Shown piece after piece: positions 28,155 to 35,892 of a stretch of DNA of 64,000 nt. The notes below the pieces were generated by a model. The model did no database searches, was not told the DNA's origin, and saw only the letters and a program-made list of their open reading frames with translations. How positions within the stretch are numbered: the first letter of the stretch is position 1; each line of letters begins with the position of its first letter. Position numbers and translations under genes: made by a program. The stretch spans positions 382,005 to 446,004 of the forward strand of contig PKTK01000001.1 of NCBI GenBank assembly GCA_002869165.1, in the 5' to 3' direction. This DNA is from Candidatus Parcubacteria bacterium. GTDB taxonomy: Bacteria; Patescibacteriota; Patescibacteriia; Patescibacteriales; UBA12075.

Positions 28155-29102
28155 TTAAAATCCAAAATATGTCACTTCTTCGACTAATTGTATGCCAAAC
28201 TTATTTCTGACTTGCTGTTTTATATAACTAATCATCATAATAATTTCTTCGCTTGTTCCTTTGCCTGTATTTACTATGTGGTTGGCGTGTTCTAAGCTTA
28301 TTTTGATTCCGCCCATTGATTTTCCTTTGAGTCCAGCCTTTTCAATTATAAGTCCGGCGCTCAACCAGCCCTCTCGACCTATTTTATCTTTAAATTCTCT
28401 ATTAAATAGAATTGGGTTAGCCTGTTTGGCAATCTCTGGGTCAATGTTGGTAAAAACAGAGCCAGCGCTAGGAAGTTGTGGATATTTAGTTTTTCTGAAT
28501 TCCAATGATTCTTCCATTTTTTCCTCAATTTCATTTTTTTCTTTATGTTCAAGCTTGAGGATTGTTTTCCAGACAAGAAACTGGGGTTTTTGTTTAAAGA
28601 TGCTACTGCGATATGAAAACAAGCACATATTTTTACTCAAAGTCTCAAATTCATTTCTTTTAGAATTATATATTTCTACAGTTTCTACAATATCCTGCAT
28701 GCATGTTCCAAAAGCACCCGCATTACCTCTTATGGCTCCACCAACAGTAGCTCGAGGAATGCCACTTGACCACTCAAGGCCAGAAAGAGAGCTATTTAGC
28801 GCTAAACTAGCTGCTTGTGCTAAGCTTACACCTGCTCCAAGATCCAGTCGATCCCCCTTAGCTTGTTTTTCGTCATTGGAAATATGTAAAACCAGACCAT
28901 TTATACCTGAGTCTGGTGTAACAATATTTGATCCTCCGCCTAAAATATAGGTTTTAAGTTCATTTTCCTGAGCAAATTGAAAACCATCCATTAAGTCATC
29001 TTTTGACTTAACTTCTAGATAATACTTAACCTCTCCTCCAACTCGAAAAGTATTGAATTCCTTCAAACTAATATTTTCCCTAATTTTTTCTTTTATAGAC
29101 AT
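28155..29102 (-). CDS. murB: UDP-N-acetylenolpyruvoylglucosamine reductase
   Basis: ..FNTFRVGGEVKYY.., ..ILGGGSNI.., and a C-terminal MurB-type domain. Adjacent to murC. Confidence 0.85.
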   Translation of the reverse strand: MSIKEKIRENISLKEFNTFRVGGEVKYYLEVKSKDDLMDGFQFAQENELKTYILGGGSNIVTPDSGINGLVLHISNDEKQAKGDRLDLGAGVSLAQAASLALNSSLSGLEWSSGIPRATVGGAIRGNAGAFGTCMQDIVETVEIYNSKRNEFETLSKNMCLFSYRSSIFKQKPQFLVWKTILKLEHKEKNEIEEKMEESLEFRKTKYPQLPSAGSVFTNIDPEIAKQANPILFNREFKDKIGREGWLSAGLIIEKAGLKGKSMGGIKISLEHANHIVNTGKGTSEEIIMMISYIKQQVRNKFGIQLVEEVTYFGF

Positions 29103-29105
29103 TTT

Positions 29106-30515
29106 TTAATTATTTACAAGCCTTTCCCCTATCCGAAACACATCCCCAGCTCCCATGAGTACACAGAGATAATTTTGGTCAAGCTTTCCGCGTAGATATT
29201 CTTCGCACTTTTCAAGAGTTGGAATATAGATGACATGCAAATCGGGGTTTTGTTCTTCTATTTTTAAGATTAGGTCTTTAGAATGCACTCCACCTTGTTC
29301 TTCTCTGGCTGAGCCGTAGATATCTAATACAATTAATTCGTCTGTGTCAGAAAATGATTTAGCGAATTCATCTATAAGGCCTTTGGTGCGAGTAAAAGTG
29401 TGAGGATGAAACACTGTCAGAACATGTTTTTTGGGATATTTCTTTTTAATCCCAGCAATAGTTGCGCTAATTTCAGTTGGATGGTGAGCATAATCGTCTA
29501 TAATAGTTGCTCCGCGGAATCTGCCCATCATTTCCATACGTCTAGATACCCCCTTGAAATCTTCTAGATGACTTCTTATTTGCACAAGTGGAACATTTAG
29601 TTCAATGCAAGTTGCGATTACCGCTAGAGCATTATATACATTGTGTTCGCCACTCAAGGAAATACTAAAATCTCCAAGCTCATTTGGTCCCTCGTCTTCA
29701 TCAAAAGGATCCACACCAAGCTTTACTTTGAAATATTGCTTATCATCTCTTTGTTCAATATTATATGCCACATAATCTGCTAACTCGTTTATTGCGTAAC
29801 TTATCACTTTGGCCCGGGTATTTACATTAGCAATTCGTTTAACTGTGTCATCATCAAAGTTGGCTACCAAAAATCCATTTTTTGGAATTTTTGTAATAAA
29901 ATCTACAAAAACCTGATTGTAGTCATCTTTAGTCGGAAAGAAATCAGGATGATCATAGTCAATATTATTAAGTAAAACAGCATTAGGATTGTAGTGCTTT
30001 AGTTTGTTTTGGTATTCATCTGCCTCAATCAATAAATAATCAGACGAACCAGTAATCGAGCAACCACCTAGTTGATCTACATTAGCGCCTACCATAACAT
30101 TTGGTGCTAGAAAAGATTTTTCCAAAACATAACCGAGCCAAGCAGTGGTGGTGGTCTTGCCATGAGAACCTGCTACCGCAATACCAAAATATGAGCTAAA
30201 GAAATAGCCAAGTGCTTCAGCAAAGCTATACATTTCAAGTCCTCGTTTCTTAGCCTCAGCGAATTCAATATTAGTTTTTTCATTATAGGCGCTAGAATAT
30301 ATAATAATATGGTCACGTTCTGGTAAATTATCTATACTAAAACCTTGATGTACTTTGATACCACATTTTTTGAGCACCTTGTCAGTCATAAAAACTTCAG
30401 CTGTATCTGAACCCGTTACTTCAAAGCCTTTCTCAACCAAAAACTGAGCTAGCATAGATACACCAACCCCCTTGATACCGATCATATATATTTTTTTCTT
30501 GTTTTTTAAGTTCAT
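29106..30515 (-). CDS. murC: UDP-N-acetylmuramate--L-alanine ligase
   Basis: Start taken at MNLKNKKKIYMIGIKGVGVSMLAQFL..GSD. The Mur ligase P-loop is GSHGKTTTT. The ORF-track N-terminal extension (to 30608) is read-through of hairpin repeat A. Confidence 0.85.
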   Translation of the reverse strand: MNLKNKKKIYMIGIKGVGVSMLAQFLVEKGFEVTGSDTAEVFMTDKVLKKCGIKVHQGFSIDNLPERDHIIIYSSAYNEKTNIEFAEAKKRGLEMYSFAEALGYFFSSYFGIAVAGSHGKTTTTAWLGYVLEKSFLAPNVMVGANVDQLGGCSITGSSDYLLIEADEYQNKLKHYNPNAVLLNNIDYDHPDFFPTKDDYNQVFVDFITKIPKNGFLVANFDDDTVKRIANVNTRAKVISYAINELADYVAYNIEQRDDKQYFKVKLGVDPFDEDEGPNELGDFSISLSGEHNVYNALAVIATCIELNVPLVQIRSHLEDFKGVSRRMEMMGRFRGATIIDDYAHHPTEISATIAGIKKKYPKKHVLTVFHPHTFTRTKGLIDEFAKSFSDTDELIVLDIYGSAREEQGGVHSKDLILKIEEQNPDLHVIYIPTLEKCEEYLRGKLDQNYLCVLMGAGDVFRIGERLVNN

Positions 30516-30525
30516 TTTTTGTTTT

Positions 30526-30630
30526 TTGTTATTCCGTAAGGAGCGAAAGCGACTGTAGGAATCCCTTTGCCGTGCTATTTTCACGTTTAAGGGATTTCTT
30601 CGCTTCACTTCGTTACGCTACGAAATGAAA
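30526..30630 (+). repeat. hairpin repeat unit A (3' flank of GIY-YIG gene 1)
   Basis: TTGTTATTCCGTAAGGAGCGAAAGCGACTGTAGGAATCCC - loop - GGGATTTCTTCGCTTCACTTCGTTACGCTACGAAATGA. The arms are imperfect inverted repeats. Confidence 0.8.
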
Positions 30631-30636
30631 AGTTTT

Positions 30637-30930
30637 TTAAATTAAATCGTGATAAAGATCTTTCCAATGTGGATTAAGCTCTTTAATTATTTTCTCTTTT
30701 TTCTGCCTATTCCAATCTTTCAATTCTTTTTCTCTTTCTAGTGCTTCATTAACATATTTAAATATTTCATAATACACTAGTTTTTTGCATGAGTACTTTT
30801 TTGAAAATCCTTCGATCTTCCCCTCTCTATGTTCTATTATTCTTCTAATTAGTGAATTTGTAAACCCAATGTATAAAGTACCGCTACTGCTAGCAATTAT
30901 ATAAACATAAAATTTATATTCCCTCCTCAT
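30637..30930 (-). CDS. small GIY-YIG nuclease-family protein (97 aa)
   Basis: MRREYKFYVYIIASSSGTLYIGFTNSLIRRIIEHREG.. carries the GIY..YIG..R..H/E core. A GAGGAGGG SD precedes the ATG at 30930. The ORF-track extension is read-through of repeat B. Confidence 0.85.
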   Translation of the reverse strand: MRREYKFYVYIIASSSGTLYIGFTNSLIRRIIEHREGKIEGFSKKYSCKKLVYYEIFKYVNEALEREKELKDWNRQKKEKIIKELNPHWKDLYHDLI

Positions 30931-30940
30931 ATTTTTTTCT

Positions 30941-31037
30941 TTGTCATTCCGTAAGGAGCGATAGCGACTGTAGAAATCCCTTAAACGTGAAAATAGCACA
31001 GTTAAGAGATTTCTTAGCTTCGCTACGAGATGACAAA
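30941..31037 (+). repeat. hairpin repeat unit B (5' flank of GIY-YIG gene 1)
   Basis: The left arm is near-identical to unit A (TTGTCATTCCGTAAGGAGCGATAGCGACTGTAGAAATCCC). The loop is the reverse complement of A's loop. The right arm is GAGATTTCTTAGCTTCGCTACGAGATGACAAA. Confidence 0.8.
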
Positions 31038-31065
31038 TAAATAGTTATATCCTCTCCTTTATCAA

Positions 31066-32142
31066 TTAAGCAATAACCTCATTGGCATCATCTTTTAATA
31101 TATTCTGAATATTTCTAGTATGAACTTCGATTAATTCTCCATCAAACAATTTATTTTTTACAATTTCAGTAAATTTTTGAGCATCTAGATTTTTTTGATG
31201 CAATACTGTCGCTGCATTAGCTTCAGAAAAAATCTTAGCATTTTCTTCTTGATGAGAATCAGGCATAGGGATTAAAATAGCATTTAAGCCAAGCTGAGAT
31301 ATTTCAGTCAAAGAATTCATACCACAACGAGACACGATTAAGTCAGCTACTGAATAAACCTTGATTACTCCAAAAATATCCAAAAATTCAAAGTATTTAT
31401 ATTCAGCTAAATTCTCCATCAAGTCATCATTTTTCTTGTCATTTTTACCTGTGCCTGTAATATGTATCACTTGGCAGTATTTTTTTAGTTTGGGCATAGC
31501 TTCAAGTACAAGATCATTGATGGCTTGCGCTCCTGTTCCCCCGCCCATCACAACCACTATTGGCTTTTCTGTTCTGAGACCAAACTTACTTATAGCTTCC
31601 CTGCGACTTATTTTCATTTTTTTATAATCTTGCCTAAAAGGATTGCCTGTCCAAATTGCTTTTTTACCATAATCATCCAAAGATTTTTCAAAGCTCACGG
31701 TTATAGTAGTAGCCAGGGGTGACATTAGTTTATTAGCTAAACCTGGTCTATAATCTTGCTGATGAACAAAAACAGGTACTCTAAATAGCCATGCTGCCCA
31801 AATAATCGGCACTGAAGCAAATGAGCCAGCCGACATTACTAGGTCTGGTTTGAATTTTAAAATTATAGCAATGGACTGAAAAAAGCCTGCCACTATTAAA
31901 AATGGATCTATAAAATTATTGAACGAAAAATACCTACGAAGCTTTCCGCCAGATATTGCCTGATATTTGAGTCCGTCTCTTTCAATCATGTGTTTTTCAA
32001 CTCCTCCTTTTACTCCAACAAAAAGAAACTCAAAATCATAATTTGAATCAAGTTTGAGAGTTTCAGCTACAGATAATAGTGGCGAAACTGGTCCAGCAGT
32101 CCCTCCGGCTGAAAATATTATTTTCTTTTTTATTTTTTTCAT
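31066..32142 (-). CDS. murG: undecaprenyldiphospho-muramoylpentapeptide beta-N-acetylglucosaminyltransferase
   Basis: N-terminal ..GGTAGPVSPLL.., mid ..GGGTGAQAIN.., GT28 layout, dcw context. Confidence 0.85.
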   Translation of the reverse strand: MKKIKKKIIFSAGGTAGPVSPLLSVAETLKLDSNYDFEFLFVGVKGGVEKHMIERDGLKYQAISGGKLRRYFSFNNFIDPFLIVAGFFQSIAIILKFKPDLVMSAGSFASVPIIWAAWLFRVPVFVHQQDYRPGLANKLMSPLATTITVSFEKSLDDYGKKAIWTGNPFRQDYKKMKISRREAISKFGLRTEKPIVVVMGGGTGAQAINDLVLEAMPKLKKYCQVIHITGTGKNDKKNDDLMENLAEYKYFEFLDIFGVIKVYSVADLIVSRCGMNSLTEISQLGLNAILIPMPDSHQEENAKIFSEANAATVLHQKNLDAQKFTEIVKNKLFDGELIEVHTRNIQNILKDDANEVIA

Positions 32143-32146
32143 TTAT

Positions 32147-32317
32147 TTACTTTTTCCAATCAACGATTTTAATAGTCTTCCCGCTTTTAGTTACCACTAA
32201 TTTCTGGCCCTCCCTAATCTTTAATGATCTGACAATTTCTATGGGCAAGGTAATACCGTAACTACCAGATTTTTTATAAACTTTACGGATGCTTCTTTTT
32301 TCTAAAGTTTTTCTCAT
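32147..32317 (-). CDS. AbrB/MazE/SpoVT-family DNA-binding protein (56 aa; below the ORF-track cut-off)
   Basis: Manual translation MRKTLEKRSIRKVYKKSGSYGITLPIEIVRSLKIREGQKLVVTKSGKTIKIVDWKK shows the looped-hinge SpoVT/AbrB pattern (GitLPxEivrxLxixeGqxL). The stop is 4 nt before the murG ATG. Confidence 0.7.
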   Translation of the reverse strand: MRKTLEKRSIRKVYKKSGSYGITLPIEIVRSLKIREGQKLVVTKSGKTIKIVDWKK

Positions 32318-32332
32318 AGTTTTTAAGTTAAT

Positions 32333-32370
32333 TTAGGGTACCTTAAAAGGTACCTTTTAAGGTACCCTAA
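32333..32370. promoter_or_regulatory. perfect 38-bp palindrome with three GGTACC cores (candidate operator)
   Basis: TTAGGGTACCTTAAAAGGTACCTTTTAAGGTACCCTAA equals its own reverse complement. It lies 16 nt upstream of the AbrB-type gene start. Confidence 0.6.
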
Positions 32371-32398
32371 TCTTACCCTATTTAATCTTATAAATCAA

Positions 32399-32695
32399 CT
32401 AAGAAAATATTTTATAAACTAAATATAAAATGGCACAATTTTGTAATATTAGCATCGGGATACCAATCAAAAAATACCATTTGCGAGTCTTATGCCTGAA
32501 GGCAAACATACCCGCATAGACCCCGAGACTACCGAAAATAGTAGCCAAAAAGAACATCATGCCCTCTGAGATTCTCTCAGAGTCTTGACTACTAGCTTTG
32601 ATTTTATCGATCATCATAATCAGGAAAGAAATTAAATTTATTCCAAGGAAGAAGATGATGATTATAAGTGGTTGGATTTCTATGTTTATGGACAT
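32399..32695 (-). CDS. DUF1294-like small membrane protein
   Basis: ..MMIDKIKA...RISE...FGSLGVYAGMFAFRHKTRKWYF.. matches the DUF1294 pattern. Confidence 0.6.
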   Translation of the reverse strand: MSINIEIQPLIIIIFFLGINLISFLIMMIDKIKASSQDSERISEGMMFFLATIFGSLGVYAGMFAFRHKTRKWYFLIGIPMLILQNCAILYLVYKIFS

Positions 32696-32746
32696 TTATT
32701 TATATAGCTAAATTGTTTTGGTGCTAAATTGTTGAGGTGGTTAATT

Positions 32747-32838
32747 TTGTCATTTAGAATCCCTTTAGGGTGAGAAATCTTTAATGCGTTTAGAGTGGCA
32801 CGTATTATAGATCTCTCGCATCCGCTCGAGATGACAAA
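32747..32838 (+). repeat. hairpin repeat unit C (3' flank of GIY-YIG gene 2)
   Basis: TTGTCATTTAGAATCCCTTTAGGGTGAGAAATC...ATTATAGATCTCTCGCATCCGCTCGAGATGACAA. The last 34 nt are identical to unit D. Confidence 0.8.
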
Positions 32839-33188
32839 TTTTTTATGTCTTCAAGAATTTCTTTATAGTTATTTTTGTTTATTCCGTAGCTGTCAAATAT
32901 TTCTGCACTTAAATCGTTTTGTTCAGGATTTATTTCGGAAATTAATGCAATCTTTTTTTCTCTTCGCCATTTTTTAATTTCTTTTTCTCTATTAATTGCC
33001 TGATCAATATACCTGTAATACTCATAATAGACTAAATATTTTAGTGAGTATTTTTTTGTAAAATTACTCCCGAAACCTTCTCTATGTTCAATAATTCTTC
33101 TAAGGATATTATTTGTTAATCCTGTATAGTATGTTGTCCTATTAAAATTTGAAACTATATAAATATAGTACCTATACTCCTTTTTCAT
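32805..33188 (-). CDS. small GIY-YIG nuclease-family protein (127 aa)
   Basis: MKKEYRYYIYIVSNFNRTTYYTGLTNNILRRIIEHREG.., with a GGAGGG SD before the ATG at 33188. The 3' end runs into repeat C, and the ORF-track N-terminal extension is read-through of repeat D. Confidence 0.8.
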   Translation of the reverse strand: MKKEYRYYIYIVSNFNRTTYYTGLTNNILRRIIEHREGFGSNFTKKYSLKYLVYYEYYRYIDQAINREKEIKKWRREKKIALISEINPEQNDLSAEIFDSYGINKNNYKEILEDIKNLSSRADARDL

Positions 33189-33213
33189 TTCCCTCCTTAA
33201 TAATTTAATTATT

Positions 33214-33297
33214 TTGTCATTTCGAACGAAGTGAGAAATCTTTAATATGTTAAAATTGCACGAATTATAGATCTCTCGCATCCGCTCGAGATGACAA
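33214..33297 (+). repeat. hairpin repeat unit D (5' flank of GIY-YIG gene 2)
   Basis: TTGTCATTTCGAACGAAGTGAGAAATC - loop - GATCTCTCGCATCCGCTCGAGATGACAA. The arms pair over ~25 nt with a few mismatches/wobbles. Confidence 0.8.
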
Positions 33298-33319
33298 GAA
33301 TCATATAACAATGTTATAT

Positions 33320-33703
33320 CTATAAGTTCTTCAAATACTCCACAATCGGTAAATCCGCTTCTACGAATTTGTAATTTTCGAAGTCTTCTGCTTCTACCCA
33401 GGCGATACGTGAGTGATCGTTTAATTTGAATTTTCCTGAACGATACTTTGCTTTGTAGACGTATATTTTTACATTAGTCTTGTCCATGTATTTGTGCTCA
33501 GTTTCCATGATAAGTTCATGGATGTCAGCGTCTATCTCAAGCTCCTCCCTGAGCTCTCTTTTGAGGCACTCCTTTGGGGTTTCATTGGCTTCAATTTTGC
33601 CACCAGGAAATTCCCAGAGATCGCCCATGTGGCTATTCTCTAGTCTTTTTCCTATTAGTACATGCTTATTTTTTATTAGCACTGCAGCTGTTACTTCTAT
33701 CAT
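33320..33703 (-). CDS. NUDIX hydrolase (MutT-like)
   Basis: Nudix box GGKIEANETPKECLKRELREELEI. 127 aa. Confidence 0.8.
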   Translation of the reverse strand: MIEVTAAVLIKNKHVLIGKRLENSHMGDLWEFPGGKIEANETPKECLKRELREELEIDADIHELIMETEHKYMDKTNVKIYVYKAKYRSGKFKLNDHSRIAWVEAEDFENYKFVEADLPIVEYLKNL

Positions 33704-34843
33704 TTATGTTCTTTTAGTTTGCTTGGAAATATTTACTAAAATCCCGCAAGCAGCCATGGCTGAAAGGATGGCAGATCCGCCGTAACTAATAAGAGGAAGC
33801 GGTACGCCGGTCATGGGGATGATATTGATAATACCGCCGATATTTATCATGGCCTGAAGAGATATCCAGCTTACGATTCCTATGGCCAGGTTTTGACCAA
33901 AAGGATCGGGGGCGTTCTTGGCTATCAGAAACCCTCTGTAAAATATAAAAAGAAACAGTGATATTAGAATTACTCCAAATACTAAACCAGTTTCTTCAGC
34001 TATAATTGCAAAAATTGAGTCACCACTTACTTCAGGTAGATACATGAACTTTTGCCTACTCTCCCCTAGTCCTCGTCCTAAAACACCCCCAGAACCAACT
34101 GCAATAAGTGACTGATTGATCTGATAACAAACATCATTAGCGGAATAATCAGGATTTATCATGCAACGAATTCTATCCATTTGATAAGGTTTAATCTGAA
34201 GCATGACCAAAAAGAGAATAATACCAACCAAAATAATACCTAAAATATGAGTTAATTTACCACCACCAACAAAAAACACTATCAATGAAGTGGCTGCAAG
34301 GATTGAAAGCGTACCAATGTCTGGCTGCAGAATCATAAGTCCTGCCAAAACAGACAAAAGTCCTACAAAAGGCATGATACCTCGAGATATTTCCCCTAAC
34401 TCTTCTTTTCTAAACTCAAGCCAAGCAGATAAATATATTAAAAAAGACAATTTCACAAATTCTGATGGCTGCAATGAATAGCCGAAGACATTAATCCAAC
34501 TACGAGCCTTGCCGTAGTGAGCACTAAGTCCAGGAATAAACACAAGTAACAATAAGCCAATTGACCCAAGTAAAAACCAAAATGCATAGTTTTTCCAATT
34601 ACGATAATCAACTTTAGCTAAAAACAAAAAAACAGCCATTCCGACAAACAAACCAAAAAGCTGATGTTTAAAAAAATAATAAGCATCGCAAAATTTGGAA
34701 TAAGCAGTGATTGAAGATGCACTAGATAAAGCAATTAGCCCCAAAAAAATAGTTAAAAAAATTGCTCCTATCAAAAGCTTGTCAGACTCGTGATATGTCC
34801 TTTTTCTTTCTGAATTATGTTTTGCTCTGTTAGTAGCTAACAT
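33704..34843 (-). CDS. ftsW: SEDS-family peptidoglycan polymerase FtsW/RodA
   Basis: 10-TM SEDS layout. It shares 1 nt with the mraY stop (TAATG). The ftsW assignment comes from the dcw context. Confidence 0.8.
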   Translation of the reverse strand: MLATNRAKHNSERKRTYHESDKLLIGAIFLTIFLGLIALSSASSITAYSKFCDAYYFFKHQLFGLFVGMAVFLFLAKVDYRNWKNYAFWFLLGSIGLLLLVFIPGLSAHYGKARSWINVFGYSLQPSEFVKLSFLIYLSAWLEFRKEELGEISRGIMPFVGLLSVLAGLMILQPDIGTLSILAATSLIVFFVGGGKLTHILGIILVGIILFLVMLQIKPYQMDRIRCMINPDYSANDVCYQINQSLIAVGSGGVLGRGLGESRQKFMYLPEVSGDSIFAIIAEETGLVFGVILISLFLFIFYRGFLIAKNAPDPFGQNLAIGIVSWISLQAMINIGGIINIIPMTGVPLPLISYGGSAILSAMAACGILVNISKQTKRT

Positions 34844-35892
34844 TAAATTGTTTTATCGAGAACAAAAATTATTAAACCAATACTAGAAAAAATACCTGAT
34901 AAAACCCATGCTCTCATTACAATTTTAGTTTCGGGCCAGCCTTTAGCTTCAAAATGATGATGAATTGGAGCTGATAAAAAAACCTTTTTGCCATTTCTTA
35001 ACTTTTTTGAAACAATTTGGATAATAGTTGATAGAGCCTCGAGTAAAAAGATGAAGCCAATAAAGGGTAAAATAAATTCAGTATGTGTGTAAAGTGCGAA
35101 AACAGCCAAAGTTACACCCATAGAAATAGAACCGGTATCGCCCATATAAAATCTAGCCGGATTAATATTAAACCACAAAAATGCTAACAATGCTCCAACT
35201 AAAACTCCACAAAAAGCAGCTAAATCATATCTACCAATTGAGAAAGCAATTACTCCATAAGAAAGAAAAGATATCATCAAAGTTCCTCCTGCTAAACCAT
35301 CAAGTCCGTCAGTTTGGTTAACTGAAAAAGCAGTCCCAACTACTATAAAAATAAAAAATAAAATATACCACCATCCTACTTCAAAGGTCCCTATCAGAGG
35401 AATAGTTACAAGATCCCATTCTAACTTAAAGTAAAACCACCAAGCACCAACCATCGCAATGGCTATATATATAAGTAGTTTATGCGAGAATTTAATCCCT
35501 CTTTTTTTGTAACCCAAGCGTCTCACATCCAAATAATCATCAATAAGTCCGACTAATGCAGATGCTACTAAAACTCCAAGGGGAAGCAGGGTTTCTTTTC
35601 TGGTTAGAAAGTTAATTTTTTCCAATATTTCAAACGGTAGTAGCTTTGATACATAGAAAAAGAATAAAGAAAATATTAAAACTGTTGCCCATATCAAAAT
35701 TCCACCCATGGTTGGTGTGCCTGATTTATGAGCATGCATTTTGGTGAATAACGGTGTATTGCCATCATCTCTAATCTGTTTGCCTATTTTATATTTATAA
35801 AGAAAATGAGTTAACAAGGGAGTCAAAGATACTGCAAAAATAAATGACAAGGTTGTTAAAAAAAGAATTTTGATAATGTAAAAGTTTTCCAT
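34843..35892 (-). CDS. mraY: phospho-N-acetylmuramoyl-pentapeptide transferase
   Basis: Polytopic, with ..DDYLD.., ..NQTDGLDGLA.. and ..PIHHHFE.. MraY motifs. Confidence 0.9.
   Translation of the reverse strand: MENFYIIKILFLTTLSFIFAVSLTPLLTHFLYKYKIGKQIRDDGNTPLFTKMHAHKSGTPTMGGILIWATVLIFSLFFFYVSKLLPFEILEKINFLTRKETLLPLGVLVASALVGLIDDYLDVRRLGYKKRGIKFSHKLLIYIAIAMVGAWWFYFKLEWDLVTIPLIGTFEVGWWYILFFIFIVVGTAFSVNQTDGLDGLAGGTLMISFLSYGVIAFSIGRYDLAAFCGVLVGALLAFLWFNINPARFYMGDTGSISMGVTLAVFALYTHTEFILPFIGFIFLLEALSTIIQIVSKKLRNGKKVFLSAPIHHHFEAKGWPETKIVMRAWVLSGIFSSIGLIIFVLDKTI

Follow-up and report, generated by a model that had tools for sequence, protein, structure and literature searches.

The Ssn family is composed of proteins that possess a GIY-YIG domain only, are 94 amino acids long in Neisseria meningitidis and fall under CDD model cd10448 (Chenal et al., Nat Commun 2025; PMC11893778). 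On either side of the ssnA genes lie oriented hairpin repeats. Their Neisseria form (CGTCATTCCCGCGMAVGCGGGAATCYRG) is known as NTS, and the general name is Ssn-related motif (SRM). At least one SRM is found at 71% of the homologue loci, and 42% have SRMs on both sides. SsnA has been purified from three Neisseria species (N. meningitidis, N. elongata and N. wadsworthii) and from Wolbachia pipientis, and it binds the motif and cuts single-stranded DNA (ssDNA) only. The nick is made in the motif strand only, a few nucleotides 5' of the motif. SsnA does not cut double-stranded DNA (dsDNA) or RNA, and it does not bind RNA. Transformation of N. meningitidis by DNA with the NTS-gene-NTS layout is reduced by the system. 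The authors point to an architecture like that of insertion sequences (IS) and to an analogy with repetitive extragenic palindromes (REP) and their RAYT proteins; mobility was not shown. The main text of that study does not mention Patescibacteria, the candidate phyla radiation or motif doublets. Here, we describe two GIY-YIG genes, G1 and G2, that are each bracketed by hairpin units in a stretch of 64 kb from a Candidatus Parcubacteria bacterium (contig PKTK01000001.1); the whole stretch is referred to as the window.

G1 and G2 are, with a probability of about 0.8, diverged paralogous Ssn-type ssDNA endonucleases, and the eight half-sites that make up their flanking units are the cognate recognition sites. 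The Ssn system itself was already described in 2025 (PMC11893778), and the window locus adds to a known system. The locus is notable for its candidate-phyla-radiation host, its short-stem, long-loop sites, its doublet-gene-doublet layout, its adjacent paralogues and its position in an essential gene cluster. Its two genes and four units are listed below in window coordinates.

30637 to 30930, minus strand: G1, 97-amino-acid single-domain GIY-YIG protein, putative Ssn-type nuclease gene
32805 to 33188, minus strand: G2, 127-amino-acid GIY-YIG protein with the core domain at 32904-33188, putative Ssn-type nuclease gene
30526 to 30631, no strand assigned: unit A, convergent doublet downstream of G1 (in the sense of the gene), just before murC
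30941 to 31037, no strand assigned: unit B, convergent doublet upstream of G1, between murG and G1
32747 to 32839, no strand assigned: unit C, convergent doublet downstream of G2
33214 to 33298, no strand assigned: unit D, convergent doublet upstream of G2, between the NUDIX gene and G2

G1 matches Pfam PF01541 over residues 6-79 (E 9e-16) and has no second Pfam domain. G2 matches the same family (E 1e-10), and GIY-YIG is its sole domain. With 97 amino acids in G1 and 95 in the G2 core, both fit the Ssn size and carry no accessory domain. The two proteins are 49% identical. When G1 and G2 are aligned with nine homologues, Y8, Y10, Y20, G22, R30, H34, E67 and N86 are invariant or nearly so, and the catalytic GIY-YIG residues (both Tyr, Arg, His, Glu and Asn) are kept in G1 and in G2. 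The signatures GF(T/S)KKY...LVYYE and NPxWxDL are conserved across G1, G2 and their relatives, and the G1 N-terminus, M-x-(K/R)-R-E-Y, is conserved among its homologues. There are 487 G1 homologues, and G1 is identical to a "hypothetical protein" of a Candidatus Parcubacteria metagenome-assembled genome. A family profile search of the 482 open reading frames (ORFs) in the 64 kb recovered G1 and G2 as the only Ssn-type ORFs.

Searches of NCBIfam, PADLOC and PHROGs gave nothing informative for G1 or G2. Neither protein matched a known or candidate defence-system model in PADLOC or a PHROG of known function, and neither matched the Y1_Tnp (HUH/Y1 transposase) domain, GIY-YIG being the only one found. 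In a sequence search of the PDB, the nearest structures are the distant UPF0213 proteins 1ZG2 and 1YWL (E 6.5e-8 and 1.3e-5), and no Ssn structure is among the matches. The UPF0213/YhbQ proteins, the closest solved structures by sequence, are similar to G1 and G2 in size and fold, but they form a distinct subfamily that lacks the two signatures and has no reported repeat association.

An earlier, sequence-only reading of this DNA had proposed two minus-strand GIY-YIG genes bracketed by hairpin units in the dcw cluster, and the coordinates, Pfam matches and neighbouring genes agree with it. A strong Shine-Dalgarno sequence had been assigned to both genes. This stands for G2 (AAGGAGGG) but not for G1, where no such sequence lies upstream and the AGGAGG forms codons 2-3 (Arg-Arg). 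The same reading had treated each unit as a direct copy of one hairpin element, drawn from two different arm families, and the anatomy of the units revises both points.

The units are 85-106 nucleotides long, and all four start with TTGT(C/T)ATT and end with (A/G)ATGA(C/A)AA, as had been read from the letters. When the units are read inward from both ends and compared with related loci, each is composed of two short oriented half-sites that face each other and is not a single hairpin element. A half-site has a (T)TGTCAT head, a 5-bp stem, a loop of 11-22 nucleotides, the returning stem and an ATC tail, as in TGTCATTTCGAACGAAGTGAGAAATC (left half of D) and TGTCATCTCGAGCGGATGCGAGAGATC (right halves of C and D, minus strand). 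Because similar half-sites placed in inverted orientation must pair with each other, the 85-106-nucleotide hairpin is an automatic consequence. There are eight half-sites, six of them intact, paired convergently with the heads outward, one doublet on each side of each gene. The intact half-sites lie at 30942-30982 (plus) and 31004-31035 (minus) in unit B, at 32748-32783 (plus) and 32806-32836 (minus) in unit C, and at 33215-33244 (plus) and 33266-33296 (minus) in unit D. The left arm of unit C also holds a small nested hairpin insert. In unit A both heads are degenerate, TTGTTAT on the plus strand and TTTTCAT on the minus strand.

The left arms of A and B match at 39 of 42 positions, and the right ends of C and D are identical over 34 nucleotides (32804-32837 = 33264-33297), in line with the sequence-only reading. 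The two proposed arm families share a single head and tail consensus, and B and D are 71% identical. The arms are direct copies, as had been claimed, but the loops of units A and B are reverse complements of each other. The repeat shared by A and B extends 14 nucleotides into the start regions of murC and G1, where 10 of 14 positions match; this extension is A/T-rich and too weak to interpret. The units fold better than shuffled sequences, with z-scores of -2.3 to -5.1 as DNA (unit B, -18.7 kcal/mol, z -5.1) and -3.1 to -7.9 as RNA on either strand (unit D, z -7.9), and there is no strand preference.

The half-site pattern TGTCATYYMGN{8,28}GARATCYNTW has six matches in the 64 kb, where 100 shuffled controls predict 0.00; the six are the paired halves of units B, C and D, and unit A is not matched by it. 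A short-word BLAST with the four units found no further copies in the window. A simpler finder, GTCA followed by a 5-bp perfect stem, was too unspecific in AT-rich DNA. All detectable sites in the 64 kb surround the nuclease genes, which makes the nucleases' own locus the likely immediate target.

The ORFs of the region run through the units, and the false extensions that had been suspected are visible in the ORF list. The murC ORF reads 500 amino acids from a GTG at 30608 inside unit A, the G1 ORF extends to 30999 inside unit B, and the G2 ORF runs from 33311 across unit D and ends at 32805 inside unit C. G2 carries, as had been read, a hairpin-coded tail: a 95-amino-acid core is followed by 30 C-terminal residues translated from repeat-derived sequence, and unit C contributes the final 11 codons and the stop. 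One further feature lies within the coding region of this tail.

32874 to 32890, plus strand: probable relic of a truncated head (TTTGTTTATTCCGTAGC), of the unit A/B type, degenerate

This arrangement suggests that the G2 tail was built from decayed repeat material once the original stop codon was lost.

The link between gene and motif extends well beyond the window. The comparison covered 80 genome loci of G1 homologues (45-72% identity) and 80 metagenome loci of G2 relatives, 160 in total. The G1-homologue loci come from Gracilibacteria, Falkowbacteria, Acidobacteriota, Bacteroidota, Alphaproteobacteria and others. A sense-strand GTCAT lies 50-100 nucleotides upstream of the gene in 52 of 79 G1-homologue loci, which is 12.6 times the background, and an opposite-strand head lies at most 200 nucleotides downstream in 50 of 76. 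Both occur together in 43 of 76, close to the published 42% (PMC11893778). The motifs of the relatives form a single recognisable class, for example TTGTCATTCCGCAGCGAAGCGGAGGAATCTGC in Acidobacteriaceae and TTTGTCATTCCGTAGGAATCCC in Gracilibacteria. The stems covary. When the three bases after TGTCAT were scored for their complement plus ATC, 378 of 566 distinct heads, with 14 stem types among them, were followed within 45 nucleotides by the exact complement and ATC, compared with 109 +/- 8 after permutation. Heads surround the genes of the 80 G2-relative loci in a variety of arrangements. Convergent TGTCAT...ATGACA doublets of 60-150 nucleotides number 107 and occur in 65 of the 160 loci, some of them 1-2 kb away from the gene. 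The exact doublet-gene-doublet layout is present, in unrelated contexts, at L096 and L100 among these loci, with variants in about ten more. The doublet is the usual form of the SRM, comparable to the REPINs of REP/RAYT systems, and is not special to the window.

The window locus and the described Ssn systems have much in common. In both, a single-domain GIY-YIG protein of about 95 amino acids is encoded in an NTS-gene-NTS architecture, and the motif sequence varies by lineage. The half-sites of the window share the outer parts of NTS (GTCATTCC...GGAATC). On both sides of G1 and of G2, the oriented hairpin repeats carry GTCAT as an unpaired head before the stem-loop and ATC as the tail, and the heads point away from the gene, as they do in the published loci. 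The differences are the host, which belongs to the Parcubacteria, and the sites, whose 5-bp stems and 11-22-nucleotide loops are shorter and longer, respectively, than those of the Neisseria type. In addition, the motifs of the window are convergent doublets that form 85-106-nucleotide hairpins, one on each side of a gene, and two paralogues lie within 2.5 kb in the dcw cluster. Motif copies in the window are apparently very few, compared with hundreds in the published case, and G1 and G2 are known from sequence alone.

By analogy with SsnA, the G1 or G2 enzyme would bind the folded half-site in single-stranded DNA and would then nick the motif strand just 5' of the TGTCAT head. The published SsnA biochemistry would suggest a role in ssDNA processing in the course of transformation, replication or recombination at the nucleases' own locus. 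The sequence-only reading had considered a nuclease with cognate structured DNA or RNA sites, and this agrees with the Ssn experiments (PMC11893778), which make ssDNA, not RNA, the most likely substrate.

Several points weigh against the identification of G1 and G2 as Ssn enzymes with their own sites. The published SRM string, HGTCWYN(0-2)YYVSBRHN(0-5)WNVSBRGN(0-2)RNCYNB, encodes a 7-bp stem with a loop of at most 5 nucleotides. It has no match in the 64-kb window even when the loop is relaxed to 20 nucleotides, and it matches within 300 nucleotides at 4 of the 80 G1-homologue loci. With 5-bp stems and loops of 11-22 nucleotides, the sites of the window escape the string, which was rejected as a detector for the G1/G2 clade, not as evidence against kinship. 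Membership of G1 and G2 in cd10448/Ssn would follow from an indirect chain of similarity, family size and context. The chain passes through the protein of locus L064, which is 51% identical to G1 (E 7e-27) and whose gene has TGTCATTCCCGCGAAGGCGGGAATCC, identical to the NTS consensus of Neisseria, on each side. This protein has 4659 relatives at E<=1e-10, many from the candidate phyla radiation, and no named Neisseria SsnA is among the 120 matches listed for it. The binding of ssDNA only and the strand-specific nicking 5' of the TGTCAT head would be carried over from the SsnA proteins of Neisseria and Wolbachia. The 30-residue tail of G2 is unusual, and unit A, with no canonical head, may mean that part of the system is decaying. 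Lastly, the motif copies were counted in the 64-kb window, and a metagenome scan for the 28-mer of the A/B loop, in a collection that lacks the source assembly, gave no match.

The insertion of the cassettes was examined by comparison with relatives. Even the closest MurG relatives share only about 61% identity, which is too little for an alignment of intergenic DNA, and gene order was compared instead. In L005, mraY, ftsW, murG and murC are contiguous, murG and murC overlap, and there are no GIY-YIG, NUDIX, DUF1294 or AbrB-like genes. In L006 and L007, unrelated genes occupy the junctions between ftsW and murG and between murG and murC, and both cassettes are absent. The expectation that related dcw clusters without the cassettes exist was thus borne out. 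The cassettes are missing from the closest dcw clusters and are therefore lineage-specific additions at junctions that vary in this group. In four assemblies that are more than 99.9% identical, the same locus is unchanged with the cassettes in place, and none of the four has a strain-level empty site. The target duplication that had been proposed as a check was found at neither window cassette. As a separate observation, relatives other than L005 carry amidohydrolase, Zn-ribbon and unknown genes at these two junctions (window 31038-33703 compared).

The foremost alternative extends the preferred interpretation more than it opposes it. According to it, the doublet-ssn-doublet cassette is mobile in its own right, and solo doublets derive from it as non-autonomous forms, similar to REPINs or to miniature inverted-repeat transposable elements. 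The cuts of the GIY-YIG nickase would fall on opposite strands, 5' of the outward heads, and the unit would be copied or inserted through replication or repair in the host. This is possible, though on the whole unlikely. It would explain how cassettes arrived between essential dcw genes, and the nearest dcw clusters without cassettes are in its favor, as is the recurrence of the doublet-gene-doublet layout in unrelated contexts (L096, L100). The nucleases' own locus as the target keeps such a self-contained selfish or mobile cassette live as an extension, and an IS-like architecture was remarked on for the described family (PMC11893778).

Related loci also support movement. At four of them (L124, L097, L142 and L135), the repeats or the cassette lie within the 5' end of one host gene (MA(K/N)DFFPPRPE...KIGYT), in its first 12-50 codons, downstream of an Eco57I-like methyltransferase. 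The 5' end of this gene is duplicated on the far side of the insert over 36 to about 150 nucleotides (53 to about 150 in L097, L142 and L135). In L124 (600-1400), copies of the host 5' end enclose a solo doublet and, separately, a doublet-ssn-doublet unit. These copies match at 34-35 of 36 positions, whereas the three doublets match one another at only 59-62 of 77. The host copies are closer to each other than the doublets are, so separate insertions with target duplication fit better than tandem duplication. In L097 (1300-1950), an extra 16-nucleotide duplication also frameshifts the host gene.

The heads themselves are subject to change. Truncated heads (TGTCATTYCG plus about 9 variable nucleotides) are stacked in tandem outside the full half-sites at both doublet ends (L037 1660-1740, L150 1850-2400, L127 1-330). 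The contigs of L114 (580-640) and L119 (915-945) are 91% identical and differ by two 19-nucleotide stacked heads, which is also in line with a mobile element. The stacked heads point to repeated nick-associated duplication or to abortive copying at heads.

Other loci are less favorable to movement. Many species of Acidobacteriaceae have the Ssn gene in a single conserved context, the flanking repeats are variable, and alignments break exactly at the repeat arrays (L023, L025, L027, L029, L042, L058, L066, L078, L037). This pattern looks like that of RAYT genes, with a vertical gene and fast-evolving repeats, and a gene at one conserved locus resembles vertical inheritance, only the repeats being dynamic there. 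Tandem arrays of near-identical doublets with constant spacers of 7-39 nucleotides, similar to bacterial interspersed mosaic elements, occur at L123 (149-400), L148 (1267-1460), L127 and L150. Arrays with constant spacers can arise by slippage, and flanking direct repeats are ambiguous as a test of target duplication because several cases are such arrays. As a separate observation, in L158 and L160 (1298-1503 compared with 1770-1976) the repeated unit is the last ~35 nucleotides of the ssn coding sequence, a doublet and a further half-site, which indicates tandem duplication of gene-plus-repeat modules. Against mobility in the window itself stand the four assemblies with no empty site and the two cassettes with no target duplication. 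The duplications in relatives vary from 36 to about 150 nucleotides, unlike those of a transposase with a fixed stagger. GIY-YIG enzymes hydrolyse DNA, and strand transfer is not known for them.

Two known kinds of ssDNA-based element resemble the window locus in part. In REP/REPIN-RAYT systems, short palindromic repeats belonging to a single-copy nuclease gene lie on its flanks, often as inverted doublets able to fold into long hairpins (REPINs); the substrate is a hairpin in ssDNA, and the repeats turn over quickly around a gene that can be vertical. The resemblance is one of working and not of membership: the window enzymes are GIY-YIG hydrolases, not HUH/Y1 transposases, there is no GTAG-type REP head, and no covalent intermediate or strand transfer is known on the GIY-YIG side. 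IS200/IS605 elements (TnpA, 'peel and paste') likewise have a small gene between imperfect hairpins that are recognised in ssDNA, with dependence on strand and orientation. The window differs from them in that it has no TnpA or TnpB, no defined target tetranucleotide is seen, and the heads are on opposite strands at the two ends, where IS200/IS605 uses one strand.

Together, the dynamics of the relatives render a process at the DNA level, acting on the heads, likely, without establishing its mechanism. It is doubtful, though conceivable, that the GIY-YIG ssDNA nickase drives a self-mobilising unit in which nicks and host synthesis lead to insertion with long, variable target duplications. If so, self-mobilisation would also yield the stacked truncated heads of the related loci and would account for cassettes between essential cell-wall genes of a reduced candidate-phyla-radiation genome. 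It would then be a transposition-like mechanism without a transposase of any known class.

It is improbable that the hairpins act as RNA in a polycistronic dcw transcript, for instance in processing, stability or translational insulation of murC, with their position beside the nuclease genes being secondary. The genes are co-oriented, and the units are thus probably transcribed. The RNA folds reach -24 to -35 kcal/mol with z-scores down to -7.9, and the end of unit A lies 10-40 nucleotides ahead of the murC start. However, folding shows no strand preference. A search of Rfam (29000-35000, E<=1) gave spurious matches only, including mir-968 on a 38-nucleotide palindrome, so that no RNA family fits, and a scan for terminators and promoters found nothing at the units and no terminator-like tail. 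Conservation is highest in the unpaired TGTCAT head and in the ATC tail, which fits recognition of an oriented DNA site by a protein and does not fit an RNA helix. Across the 160 loci, heads accompany the gene whatever its strand or operon context, and SsnA did not bind RNA (PMC11893778).

Free-standing homing endonucleases, which would cut the dsDNA of cassette-free alleles and spread by repair in the manner of phage Seg or I-TevI-like enzymes, are a still poorer account of G1 and G2. The catalytic GIY-YIG fold, the selfish-element flavor, the intergenic sites between conserved genes and the absence from relatives are shared with such enzymes (I-TevI, T4 Seg). Homing enzymes are modular proteins of ~250 amino acids. 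They cut dsDNA, include a DNA-binding domain as well as a long linker, and have no cognate flanking hairpins. G1 and G2, at 97 and 127 amino acids, lack a DNA-binding domain, which contradicts this account. Moreover, no PHROG of known function is matched, the context is the chromosomal dcw cluster and not an intron or phage, and homing endonuclease genes do not have conserved oriented hairpins on their flanks.

A view of the units as common REP-like palindromes, or as inverted repeats that arose by chance, unlinked to the GIY-YIG genes, is hardly tenable: the genome is 32% GC and intergenic palindromes exist in it, such as the perfect one of 38 nucleotides at 32333-32370, but the association statistics contradict this view, with six pattern matches against 0.00 expected, every copy in the window adjoining an Ssn gene, heads enriched 12.6-fold by homologues in other phyla, and covarying stems across the 160 loci. 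Generic intergenic repeats, which the sequence-only reading had named as a possible refutation, are thus contradicted at this level of testing, and both of the refuting conditions set by that reading turn out in its favor.

The cell-wall genes around the two cassettes all share one orientation in AT-rich DNA (32% GC), and the paralogues G1 and G2 lie within 2.5 kb of each other inside this essential cluster.

29.1 to 35.9 kb, minus strand: dcw cluster in the order mraY, ftsW, NUDIX, G2, DUF1294, AbrB/MazE-like (56 amino acids), murG, G1, murC, murB

The start of murC (window 29106-30515) is ambiguous. Other assemblies call a protein of 459 amino acids that begins with MIGIKGVG at 30485, and an alternative in-frame ATG at 30515 adds 10 residues. 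Directly upstream of murG is the AbrB/SpoVT-type gene (32147-32317; Pfam MazE_antitoxin), which is much shorter than MraZ and has no visible toxin partner. A similar gene is upstream of murG in L006 (5402-5587) and not in L005. The 38-nucleotide palindrome at 32333-32370 (TTAGGGTACCTTAAAAGGT followed by ACCTTTTAAGGTACCCTAA) is perfect and lies between the start of the AbrB/MazE-like gene and the stop of the DUF1294 gene. An operator for the AbrB-like protein and a bidirectional hairpin are both possible roles, and two independent assemblies, L003 and L004, both break near it. Two smaller repeats are also present: a 17-nucleotide palindrome (ATATAACAATGTTATAT) at 33303-33319, between unit D and the NUDIX stop, and an 11-nucleotide direct repeat (GCTAAATTGTT) that occurs twice, 5 nucleotides apart, at 32707-32733, between unit C and the DUF1294 start.

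For annotation, the identification of G1 and G2 means that two generic or "hypothetical" GIY-YIG genes and their flanks can be named as probable Ssn-type nucleases with cognate sites, and that their gene models can be corrected, together with that of murC: all three have false N-terminal extensions, and G2 also has the tail read from the hairpin. The published SRM string misses a large class of short-stem, long-loop sites, and the head and tail pattern recovers them. Convergent doublets and the doublet-gene-doublet layout are recurrent in Ssn loci. With a separate pair of doublets for each gene, G1 and G2 form a convenient natural test case for the specificity of enzyme for site, the property which gives Ssn proteins their appeal as ssDNA tools. 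The target duplications and stacked heads in relatives are a concrete handle on whether these elements move. With the window locus, the Ssn family would be extended to bacteria of the candidate phyla radiation.

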